A stretch of 64,000 nucleotides of DNA from an uncultured Methylomirabilota bacterium (GTDB lineage Bacteria > Methylomirabilota > Methylomirabilia > Methylomirabilales > 2-02-FULL-66-22), in contig OY970067.1 of the NCBI GenBank assembly GCA_963705305.1, positions 1,984,001 through 2,048,000 of the forward strand. The letters run 5' to 3'. A model generated the notes under the pieces. It was not told the DNA's origin. It saw only the letters and a list, made by a program, of their open reading frames with translations, and did no database searches. Of this stretch, positions 3,753 to 12,324 are shown one piece after another. A program made the translations under genes and the position numbers. Within the stretch, counting starts at the first letter, position 1; every line of letters starts with the position of its first letter.

Positions 3753-4398
3753 AGCTCTTCGTGTACTCGTGCGGGTGCGTTGTGTCCGTCTTACGGTCCC
3801 GGTAGCATGCCGGTCAGGATTTTGAGGCGCAGGTACTGTTCAGCGCGGAGGCCATACGCGCGCCGCTGGATGACGGGGATCTTGGTGTTCATCCCTTCCA
3901 CGAAGCCGAGCGAAACCTTCTCGGCCACGGTACAGCACGCGGCGATCCCGCCCCGGTTCTTCTCCATCTTGGCCGCGAACTGCCCGAAGGGGGCGAGGTT
4001 CTGCCCCTGCCGCGCGTCCTTCCGGCGATCGAAGAAGGGGCGGGTCCACCAGGCCCGGCGATATCCACACAGCTGGTCGAGCGACTCCTTGAGCAGCCAG
4101 GCGGTGTGGAGCCGCCAGTTGGCGGCCAGCAGCACCTGGAGCGGCATTTGTCCGTGCAGGGAGAGGTGCGCCCGGTGGGTGAGCCGGAGGACGCGGGCGT
4201 CGGGCCCCTCGAAGATCCTCCGGACTGTGGAGGCGGGCGAAACCCAGAGAAGCGATAGGCATCCTGAAGGCGTCGCTGATTTCGCAAGGAGCATCATGCC
4301 AGATTCTTCACCGGTGGAAAGCCCCTAAGCATCCCTGTCTCTCGGGGAATTTCTGGCGCGACAGAGGAAAAACCACCCACACAATTCCGTGAAGAGTC
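3753..4398 (-). mobile_element. Internally deleted, degenerate ISL3-family insertion sequence remnant
   Basis: Imperfect terminal inverted repeats at 3753-3777 (agctcttcgtgtactcgtgcgggtg) and 4374-4398 (reverse complement gactcttcacggaattgtgtgggtg), 17/25 identical, enclosing an ISL3 transposase C-terminal fragment. Confidence 0.8.
3791..4150 (-). pseudogene. ISL3 transposase C-terminal fragment
   Basis: LLAANWRLHTAWLLKESL...VSLGFVEGMNTKIPVIQRRAYGLRAEQYLRLKIL matches the ISL3 C-terminus; most of the protein is missing. Confidence 0.85.
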
Positions 4399-10041: not shown

Positions 10042-10154
10042 GGCCGTCCACGGATAATCCACAGGCGACCCACGGAAAAATCGAAGTTCTCCACATCGAA
10101 ACCAGCTCTATCCACAAGTTGCCCCTTGTCCTGAAAGAGGAGATGATATACCAT
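10042..10154 (+). promoter_or_regulatory. Phased DnaA-box array plus sigma-70-like promoter, copy 1
   Basis: TAATCCACA 10055, TTCTCCACA 10087 and CTATCCACA 10108 (each one mismatch to TTATCCACA); TTGTCC(10126)-17 nt-TACCAT(10149). Confidence 0.7.
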
Positions 10155-10225
10155 CGTGGTGCGCTTTCACCGGGTTCCTCGTTAGGATCACGGCTATTTT
10201 CTTCGGCTGCCAGCAGGCGGGATGG

Positions 10226-10435
10226 ATGCCGACGGATCCGAACTATTCGCCGGGATTCCTCTACAAGGGTGCCGTGCGGTTGTGCTCTCGCGGCACGGGC
10301 GACTGCCGGGGACGTGTGCGGAGATTCGCCGACGCTGCGGCGAACTCGGGTCGAGCGATCTGGGGCGAGGGACGGGACATGCGTGGGAACGATGGAGACG
10401 CCCTCGTGCGCGCTGAAGATCCGTCAAAACGGTAA
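10226..10435 (+). pseudogene. Diverged or truncated paralog of the small Zn-finger gene at 11551
   Basis: Starts MPTDPNYSPG (versus MPTDPEYSPG) with the same upstream AGGCGGGA; similarity is lost after about 10 codons. Confidence 0.45.
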
Positions 10436-10486
10436 CGAAGTGGGCGTGACGCCGGGGTGCACCTCCGACATCAAAAGGGGAGATCG

Positions 10487-10954
10487 ATGACGACGGAGAG
10501 CGGGTTCGTTCTCGTGGCGAGAGGGGCGATCGTCGCGGTCGCGTTGGTCTGGGGGATGTTGCTGGTGCCATCCCCGGCCACGGCCGACGGGGCACTGGCG
10601 GTCGGCGTTCCCCCCGACGTTGGGAAGGACGGCTTCGCCTATGGCCGGAATATCAACTCACCCAGCGAGGAGACGGCGCGCCAGAAGGCGCTCGAACTCT
10701 GCAGCACCGCCAAGGAGTCGACCGACACGGCCCGCCGGCTGTGCACCGTGGTGATGAGCTTCCACCGTCAATGCGTCTCCGTCGCCATGGACCCCAAAGC
10801 CGGAACGCCCGGCGTCGGCTGGGCCGTCGCGCCCACCCGCGAGGCGGCAGAGCAGCAGGCCCTGAGCAACTGCATGGCCACGGCCGGTCCGGACCGGCGG
10901 CAGTTCTGCGTCAAGTCCGATTCGGCGTGCGACGAGGCGTCTCCAACCCCATGA
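10487..10954 (+). CDS. Secreted DUF4189-like cysteine-rich protein
   Basis: Signal peptide ending ATA-DG; two repeats of A...AL..C......C.V with six Cys. Confidence 0.75.
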   Translation: MTTESGFVLVARGAIVAVALVWGMLLVPSPATADGALAVGVPPDVGKDGFAYGRNINSPSEETARQKALELCSTAKESTDTARRLCTVVMSFHRQCVSVAMDPKAGTPGVGWAVAPTREAAEQQALSNCMATAGPDRRQFCVKSDSACDEASPTP

Positions 10955-11364
10955 CCGCCAGGCCGCCCGCCAGCGGCGCCCTGCGCGTGCGATGGGGTGG
11001 GGGAAGCTGCGAGGCGCTTCCTGGCGGGCGGGGGAATTCGGACATCGAGAAGGCCCGCGAAGCGGAGTGCCCCCTTCGGCCAATCGGATAGATTTGTCGC
11101 TGTGAATGGGGACACTCGGGATCCAGATGAGATCCGCAATCCGTCGGTGTGGCCGGTGGCGACGGGACCCATGGCATACTGACAGACAACGACAGTGACG
11201 GGCGTGGCCCTGGCTCAACGTTCCAGGTCTCTTTCGCTCTTCTTGCGCCTCGAAGGCCAGTCTTGTTAGCGTCCACCTGCATGCCACACATGTGATTCCC
11301 TGCAGATGTCTTCCCAGGGGGCCCCCCGAACCGCCGCGGGCCGCCGCCGGGCGTGGGAGTCATC

Positions 11365-11478
11365 GGCCGTCCACGGATAATCCACAGGCGATTCACGAAA
11401 AAAATGAAGTTATCCACACAGAAACATCTCCCATCCACAGGTTTCCCCCTTGTCCTAAACGGGGGAGCGACATAGCCT
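11365..11478 (+). promoter_or_regulatory. Phased DnaA-box array plus sigma-70-like promoter, copy 2
   Basis: TAATCCACA 11378, perfect TTATCCACA 11410 and CCATCCACA 11431; TTGTCC(11450)-17 nt-TAGCCT(11473); first 27 nt identical to copy 1. Confidence 0.75.
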
Positions 11479-11550
11479 ATTTACACGCGCTCGCCGCGAT
11501 TCACTCATACCATCCCCGTTCTTTGCAACAGCCGCAACGAGGCGGGACGG

Positions 11551-11769
11551 ATGCCGACAGATCCGGAATACTCGCCAGGATTGATCCAGACATGTGCCTG
11601 GTGCGGCTCGCGCGCGGACGGACCCGATGGGTTCGCCAGAAAGCCTGCCCGTTCGCTGCCGGTCAGTCACGGAATGTGTCCCGCTTGCCGCGAAGCGTTC
11701 CTCGCCACCTTGGCCGTCTGGCAGCTCTCCCTCCGCGTCGACGACCCCCTCGTTGACCACGAAGGCTGA
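11551..11769 (+). CDS. Small (72 aa) putative Zn-finger protein, CAWC...SHGMCPAC
   Basis: Two CxxC pairs with an SHG motif; GAGGCGG RBS-like sequence; conserved upstream module. Confidence 0.7.
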   Translation: MPTDPEYSPGLIQTCAWCGSRADGPDGFARKPARSLPVSHGMCPACREAFLATLAVWQLSLRVDDPLVDHEG

Positions 11770-11878: not shown

Positions 11879-11907
11879 TTGCGACACAGGCGTGTTTACG
11901 GTATGGT
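11879..11907 (+). promoter_or_regulatory. Sigma-70-like promoter
   Basis: TTGCGA-17 nt-TATGGT upstream of 11989. Confidence 0.5.
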
Positions 11908-11988: not shown

Positions 11989-12324
11989 ATGGGACTGCTC
12001 CAGCGATTGACCTCGCTCTTCTCATCCTCCGGGCCGGCAGCGACCGATGATGCCATCCACGTGTATGTGGAATGCGGTCGCTGCAAGGCCAAGGTGCACG
12101 TCCGGCTGGACAGACGCCACGATCTCAGCATGGGAGACGAAGGCGGCTACTACGCGCGGAAAGAGATCATGGACAGCACCTGCTTCCGCCTGATGGCCGC
12201 CGAGATCACCCTCGACTCCGGCTACCGCATCCAGCGCCAGGAGATTCAGGGCGGCCGCTTCATCTCCCGGGAGGAATTCGAGGCGGCGGCCGGTCCGCAT
12301 GCAGCCCCCCCGAACCCCTCCTAA
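11989..12324 (+). CDS. Hypothetical protein with a CxxC...C motif
   Basis: Strong GAGGAGG RBS; ECGRC and STC; coding-like codon usage. Confidence 0.75.
   Translation: MGLLQRLTSLFSSSGPAATDDAIHVYVECGRCKAKVHVRLDRRHDLSMGDEGGYYARKEIMDSTCFRLMAAEITLDSGYRIQRQEIQGGRFISREEFEAAAGPHAAPPNPS

Follow-up and report, generated by a model that had tools for sequence, protein, structure and literature searches.

The window, by which we mean the whole 64,000-nt stretch of DNA that was analysed, carries two copies of a helically phased array of DnaA-box-like repeats. This array is conserved, and it likely lets DnaA switch a small downstream gene, probably on. DnaA-box clusters that lie at promoters outside the origin are a known kind; this one differs by its strict oriC-like geometry, by target genes that have apparently been exchanged and by outputs that are uncharacterised. 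No prior description of the locus was found by title and abstract in a search mainly of openly accessible papers, and the same literature search returned no paper on DnaA control in this lineage. Few species have been used to study how DnaA acts as a transcription factor, and two accounts (PMC8203912, PMC11317965) list as open the question of what decides between activation and repression. The locus is a compact and naturally replicated design, with one strong box, three weak boxes at oriC pitch and a fixed -35 offset, and it includes two natural phases as well as natural breakages. Experiments on it could be run in vitro or in a laboratory host without growing the organism itself, and it provides two candidates for replication-coupled outputs, both of them uncharacterised proteins.

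Two array copies and their neighbours

An earlier note on this DNA, made from its letters, had reported two array copies offset by 1323 bp with their first 27 bases identical, and both are present in the sequence. The TCCAC-like cores that it listed were confirmed base by base at 10047/58/69/90/10111 and 11370/81/92/11413/11434. Each copy thus holds five co-oriented cores spaced 11, 11, 21 and 21 bp apart, of which the third is degenerate (CCCAC in copy 1, TTCAC in copy 2). The corresponding 9-mers lie on the plus strand and start at 10044, 10055, 10066, 10087 and 10108 in copy 1, and at 11367, 11378, 11389, 11410 and 11431 in copy 2. Boxes 1-3 of copy 1 (10044..10074) are degenerate DnaA-like 9-mers, CCGTCCACG, TAATCCACA and CGACCCACG, which keep a conserved 11-bp pitch and are predicted to be of low affinity. 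Box 4 (TTCTCCACA, 10087..10095) is the predicted anchor and has an identical 9-mer at the dnaA promoter of this genome, while the 9-mer of box 5 (CTATCCACA, 10108..10116) is repeated identically at the likely oriC. In copy 2, boxes 1-3 (11367..11397) read CCGTCCACG, TAATCCACA and CGATTCACG, again degenerate and at 11-bp pitch. Its box 4 (11410..11418) is the perfect TTATCCACA that the note had placed at 11410, one of nine in the genome, and box 5 (CCATCCACA, 11431..11439) is followed 2 bp further on by a half-site, degenerate here, that touches the -35. The bases between the boxes have diverged and the boxes have been kept, as had been claimed: the two copies differ at 4 of 45 positions within boxes and at 10 of 28 between them (Fisher p=0.007).

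Across the 5,645,311-base genome, at least four co-oriented TCCAC[AG] within 75 bp occur only at these two places, where a Poisson expectation gives 0.2 such clusters. Rarity of this kind in one genome alone is suggestive and not decisive. A profile built from 23 arrays of other genomes scored the two copies at 36.9 and 34.0 bits, with the next site at 9.9, and no third array copy was found in the genome. The duplication emphasised in the earlier note is real here, but it is peculiar to this genome, given one match per genome in six congeners, and it is not the essence of the locus. Contigs of run X1 cover the region piecewise, and none of them bridges either array. The C-terminal part of a transposase-like ORF was also read on the minus strand at window positions 3791-4297.

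Both arrays are followed by an ORF that starts MPTDPxYSPG, as had been noted. Only the one after copy 2 is an intact gene (11551..11769, plus strand); it encodes 72 aa with the predicted metal-binding motif CAWC..SHGMCPAC and is a stand-alone relative of the C-terminal tail of receiver, PAS and GAF proteins. The ORF after copy 1 (10226..10435, plus strand) is a remnant, with ~16 homologous codons and then a 2-nt gap relative to copy 2, and no cysteine motif was found in it in any frame. Between the copies lies a DUF4189 gene (10487..10954, plus strand; Pfam PF13827, E 7.5e-15), possibly a passenger of the copy 1 promoter. By synteny copy 2 is the ortholog of the congeneric loci, where the 111-aa gene and then an opposed 2-hydroxyacid dehydrogenase follow.

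The element TTGTCC-17-TAnnnT that the earlier note described after each array is present at 10126-10154 and 11450-11478. On the plus strand these are predicted sigma70-type promoters, TTGTCC-17-TACCAT for copy 1 (10126..10154, predicted start ~10161) and TTGTCC-17-TAGCCT for copy 2 (11450..11478, predicted start ~11485). A generic promoter scanner called neither of them at its threshold; both predictions rest on conservation.

Conservation of the array and its two candidate targets

A BLASTN search of the module against 60 relatives gave no homolog and one 24-bp match; homologs surfaced only through the protein. With the copy 2 protein as query, orthologs were found in 6 of 20 congeneric genomes. 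In this comparison, which the earlier note had proposed as a refutation test of its reading, all six ortholog loci were observed to carry the array with its 11/11/21/21 spacing kept without indels. Because these loci were found by protein search, the result is not biased by the DNA pattern. A pattern of boxes 1-4, run on 66 genomes of the order, matched only those six genomes and this one, and the reversed control gave no match.

A DNA-only pattern applied to metagenomes found 27 loci, with the small gene at +182 to +193 in 22 of them, three cut by contig ends and two interrupted after box 4. As close kin, these loci do not count as independent observations, and neither do related genomes; the conservation of boxes 1-4 among the loci is also partly circular, since those boxes were in the search pattern. 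Box 5, the -35 and the -10 were recovered although they were absent from that pattern. The -35 offset is +80 in 25 of 26 distinct arrays and +79 in the remaining one, and a TA...T hexamer taken as the -10 lies 17-18 bp beyond the -35 in all 26, with a spacer of variable sequence; the promoter regex behind these counts was written after the alignment had been seen. We also found a half-site, TTGTTCTAT, 2 bp after box 5 in 28 of 33 loci, and A-tracts kept in both 21-bp gaps. The predicted site centres fall at about -50, -71, -92, -103 and -114, on one helix face and upstream of the -35. Upstream placement of sites on a single face is an activator-type layout. The conserved array, gene and -35 offset together support the promoter-coupled module that the earlier note proposed. 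Two loci with the same sequence, L076 and L090, have unrelated sequence right after box 4, which is a natural breakage.

The coupling of the array to a small ORF, also part of that proposal, held in the six congeners, but in three other congeners the array exists without the small ORF. There it stands before a conserved 111-aa gene, located in the window at 11989..12324 on the plus strand, which has a CxxC motif and no Pfam family, is homologous to a Chloroflexota family and is likely the older target of the array. This gene has its own predicted promoter, TTGCGA-17-TATGGT (11879..11907, plus strand), the one that carries the array directly in the three congeners, and it is present in 15 of 21 genomes of the genus. 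We examined nine loci in genomes without a visible ortholog plus array. Three of them (G018, G005 and G010) lack the small gene and carry phased boxes directly before the promoter of the 111-aa gene, at -64, -85/86 and -106/108, with more of them beyond; these arrays terminate in the same ATCCACAGGTT, and one of their boxes is a perfect TTATCCACA. Another five have the 111-aa gene without an array, and the last is cut by a contig end and starts within a small-gene homolog. A single pattern for both array types matched 8 of 21 genomes, with none in the control, and missed this genome and G003, in which box 3 ends in G.

Given the homologous arrays before the 111-aa gene in three congeners, we take the array to be a property of the locus that is likely older than the small gene, or at least separable from it. 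A dnaA tree places the seven small-gene genomes within a 14-row branch (100/99) that excludes G018, G005 and G010; built from one gene and rooted at its midpoint, this tree leaves the order of array events to inference. The two array types differ in their phase to the predicted start, at -50 versus -64, or about a third of a turn. This weighs against control of the promoter by DnaA, and it fits with internal geometry mattering more than polymerase contact.

DnaA as the candidate reader

Box 4 follows the pattern TT[AGC]TNCACA, with T1, T2, T4, C6, A7, C8 and A9 kept in 25 of 25 arrays and positions 3 and 5 variable; G is the commonest base at position 3 (16 of 25). The DnaA consensus given in the available part of PMC6070618 is TTWTNCACA. 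The frequent G, together with an average of 2.3-2.8 mismatches to TTATCCACA in boxes 1-3 and 5 (2.4-2.8 for boxes 1-3), counts against the DnaA reading. At the sequence level, domain IV of DnaA reads GGKDH[ST]TVIH in 21 of 21 genomes, and TTATCCACA was found upstream of dnaA in all 21 and upstream of dnaN in 18 of 19, the one miss being cut short. The box 4 pattern and the canonical DnaA in the genus support the DnaA-box reading of the earlier note, and from this comparative evidence DnaA very probably binds the array.

The arrangement resembles the low-affinity clusters of E. coli oriC and the 'double DnaA boxes', in that co-oriented degenerate 9-mers lie 2 bp apart near a strong box (parts of PMC6070618 and PMC11317965). 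E. coli DnaA prefers box pairs 2-3 bp apart, according to a portion of PMC11317965, and weak oriC sites 2 bp apart are filled cooperatively from a strong site, according to a portion of PMC6070618. We observed the 2-bp spacing at the weak boxes 1-3 and between box 5 and the half-site. It is absent at box 4, where the strong box lies 21 bp from its neighbours as against 11-12 in the E. coli double boxes, a further point against DnaA. Unlike those systems, the array has no unwinding element or IHF site, and its place is a promoter at a great distance from the origin.

OmpR/PhoB-type regulators read hexamer-N5-hexamer direct repeats at an 11-bp pitch. Another factor of this kind could therefore bind repeats that merely resemble DnaA boxes, and boxes 1-3 do keep mainly TCCACA at exactly 11 bp. 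We consider this improbable. No regulon was apparent in this genome, where exact TCCACA pairs at an 11-bp period occur once (0-2 at other periods) and looser 11-bp pairs number 21 (10-49 at other periods), which is no excess; a regulator with a single target would still be compatible with these counts. Box 4 and the arrays of G018, G005 and G010 also match the full 9-mer DnaA consensus at a 21-22 bp pitch.

The claim that the array lies away from dnaA was borne out, dnaA being 1.49 Mb distant, and the origin search proposed in the earlier note placed the likely oriC at a distance of 0.63 Mb. The dnaA gene is at 3.484 Mb of the genome (C1:3483748-3485415) with four boxes upstream, beside tol-pal-like genes (named by reading ORFs) and not beside dnaN. 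The dnaN-gyrB-gyrA genes are at 1.36 Mb and adjoin an AT-rich box cluster (C1:1363610-1365400), with the candidate upstream of dnaN at 1.365 Mb. The skew minimum falls at 1.29 Mb, near the dnaN cluster, and the maximum at 4.15 Mb, half a genome off. The dnaN-linked cluster is likely oriC, which puts dnaA 2.1 Mb from dnaN and the likely origin. In 18 of 18 congeners showing both genes, dnaA and dnaN are on different contigs. Both loci were also seen to have an inverted box pair, TTATCCACA-N2-TGTGGA. A second, divergent dnaN-like gene (3285050-3285409, E 2.3e-18) was observed near IstB-like ATPases, a label taken from reading the sequence.

Cumulative GC skew climbs to ~1.56 Mb and drops to a second minimum at ~1.82-1.86 Mb, which suggests an inversion or misassembly. 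This minimum is some 140-170 kb from the arrays and could also hint at a second origin with iteron-like repeats. Integrase arm-type sites, for their part, stand at a fixed distance to an att core with the integrase alongside, and a mobile element at tRNA-Val would account for the tRNA-Val(TAC) that lies upstream at 12 of the 27 metagenome loci and at 2 of the 6 from congeners, and for the integrase upstream at one locus. Such an origin or element is very improbable and largely refuted. As regards a mobile element, the tRNA distance varies from about 60 to 440 bp while the distance to the downstream promoter is fixed, and the tRNA-Val(TAC) of this genome is 250 kb away. Scanning of 66 of 102 candidate ORFs turned up an integrase in one of 11 neighbourhoods, and downstream the loci continue into a syntenic metabolic block. 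None of six viral homologs of the small protein has an upstream box. As regards a second origin, both a trio-like run (searched by regex) and an opposed box are absent from the arrays, which reach at most 16 A+T in 20 bp versus 18 at the likely oriC. There is no skew inflection within the window, and the dnaN-linked AT-rich box cluster lies elsewhere.

With DnaA as the reader, we think it probable that it regulates the adjacent promoter, a judgement drawn from the conserved layout. Activation would be more likely than repression, the sign being guessed from position. DnaA would take the near-consensus box 4 first and then extend head-to-tail over box 5 and the three weak boxes, whose pitch is 11 bp, much as in the weak-site clusters of E. 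coli oriC. Occupancy would be cooperative and favoured by ATP-DnaA, and the loaded DnaA would recruit polymerase. The half-site touching the -35 could give shut-off at high DnaA. E. coli nrdAB is activated at low and repressed at high DnaA-ATP (part of PMC8203912), and B. subtilis sda is activated through a DnaA cluster with a preference for ATP (part of PMC4447404). The sda promoter and the non-oriC clusters of B. subtilis share with the present locus non-origin DnaA boxes upstream of a small gene's promoter (parts of PMC4447404, PMC3245932 and PMC8203912); at sda, distal boxes add to activation and ATP-DnaA binds more strongly, as described in the available part of PMC4447404. In contrast to sda, the locus belongs to another phylum, and it has a strict 11/11/21/21 geometry without indels and one near-consensus box only. 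As for its history, the array likely controlled the 111-aa gene at first, and the small gene would have captured it later; a duplication would have arisen in this genome, with copy 1 losing its ORF.

The main rival is that the array serves mainly as a sink or inactivation site for DnaA, similar to datA or the B. subtilis clusters, with the promoter secondary. The two roles can coexist. Like E. coli datA, DARS1 and DARS2, the array is a non-origin DnaA cluster with fixed spacing. Its distance from the origin is also comparable, at 0.63 Mb from the likely oriC here and ~0.53 Mb in G005, against 0.47 Mb for datA (part of PMC5742627). All boxes are co-oriented (35 of 35 arrays), as are the essential datA boxes in the same partial source. 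The array persists while the downstream gene and promoter phase change, copy 1 kept its array after ORF loss, and B. subtilis clusters that bear promoters also restrain initiation, as far as the available part of PMC3245932 goes. Nevertheless, we regard a mainly sequestering role as unlikely. Each array has a single near-consensus box. The -35 distance is fixed within each array type while spacer sequence and leader length vary, a fixed coupling to a promoter unlike datA and DARS. The E. coli IHF consensus (at most one mismatch) is near 4 of 35 arrays and has no shared internal place, though another bending protein could act there. Moreover, no array turned up in 11 of the genus's 21 genomes, some of which are incomplete. 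The titration site suggested in the earlier note is matched by datA in box orientation and not in the E. coli-type IHF site between boxes, which the arrays lack. Its DARS-like variant fails, as an opposed box (at most two mismatches) was found in 0 of 35 arrays, and the DARS core consists of a box I opposite to boxes II and III (part of PMC5742627).

The candidate output proteins

Under regulation by DnaA, the output would be the stand-alone form of a cysteine/histidine tail of signalling proteins. Orthologs of the small protein with CxxC..HGxCxxC are 69-72 aa long, and the stand-alone form is about 69-76 aa. The CAWC, the H and the CxxC are invariant in 42 of 42 aligned members. Median dN/dS of the small gene is 0.39 (259 of 325 pairs, those with dS of 0.05-1.5), and the motif codons have a pN of 0.10 versus a pS of 0.48. 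By these codon measures the small protein is under purifying selection. Full-length members were found only in this genus when a profile was run on 251 genomes of the phylum. No family of Pfam, NCBIfam (searched with 12 alignment members) or PHROGs matched the small protein above cut-off, and the Atlas held only hypothetical clusters for both this and the 111-aa protein. Its structural model was poor (pLDDT 54), and structure searches with this weak model matched nothing.

We scanned 24 longer frames at 34 distant loci and found the motif as the C-terminal tail of eight receiver, five PAS and one GAF protein, with ten frames lacking a family. The small protein has the same cysteine/histidine motif followed by a helix as this tail, for which there is no Pfam family; it differs in being stand-alone, with a short N-terminal extension and its own predicted promoter. 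The array was found at none of the 34 distant loci. A CxxC..HGxCxxC tail was seen to end many receiver, PAS and GAF proteins across phyla (L108, L113-L115, L119, L126, L128-L135), and two more carriers lie in this genome at ~0.65 and 0.89 Mb. A structured-RNA product was considered and rejected: Rfam gave only tRNA (five loci), and single-sequence folds downstream of the ORF had no shared hairpin by eye.

The earlier note drew a parallel to the checkpoint gene sda. Nothing here supports an sda-like checkpoint role of the small protein, which has no Pfam or NCBIfam match above cut-off and, unlike Sda, carries a cysteine motif. A bolder extension, which we hold to be doubtful, is that the array acts as a portable oriC-like ATP-DnaA sensor or cell-cycle switch. 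In a genus whose dnaA no longer lies at the origin, it would have been passed from the 111-aa gene to a signalling-output domain and, here, on to the DUF4189 gene. The small protein would act as an effector of a replication checkpoint, either by mimicking receiver and PAS tails or by competing with them. If this were true, the locus would offer a first handle on the unnamed CxxC..HGxCxxC domain.

Of 401 Chloroflexota genomes, 104 have a homolog of the 111-aa protein. The idea that this gene is tied to DnaA across phyla was tried and rejected, since the array was present at 0 of 32 loci with enough upstream DNA (33 loci examined, from 31 of the 104 positive genomes), and six single boxes lay upstream versus four in downstream controls. 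The 111-aa protein was modelled as a confident beta-sheet (pLDDT 80). Its fold had no clear match in structure searches, with a best Foldseek E of 0.045 and a best Z of 5.7 (rmsd 2.9, 68 aligned). By eye, the N-terminus of the protein, MGLLQRLTSLFS, looks amphipathic.
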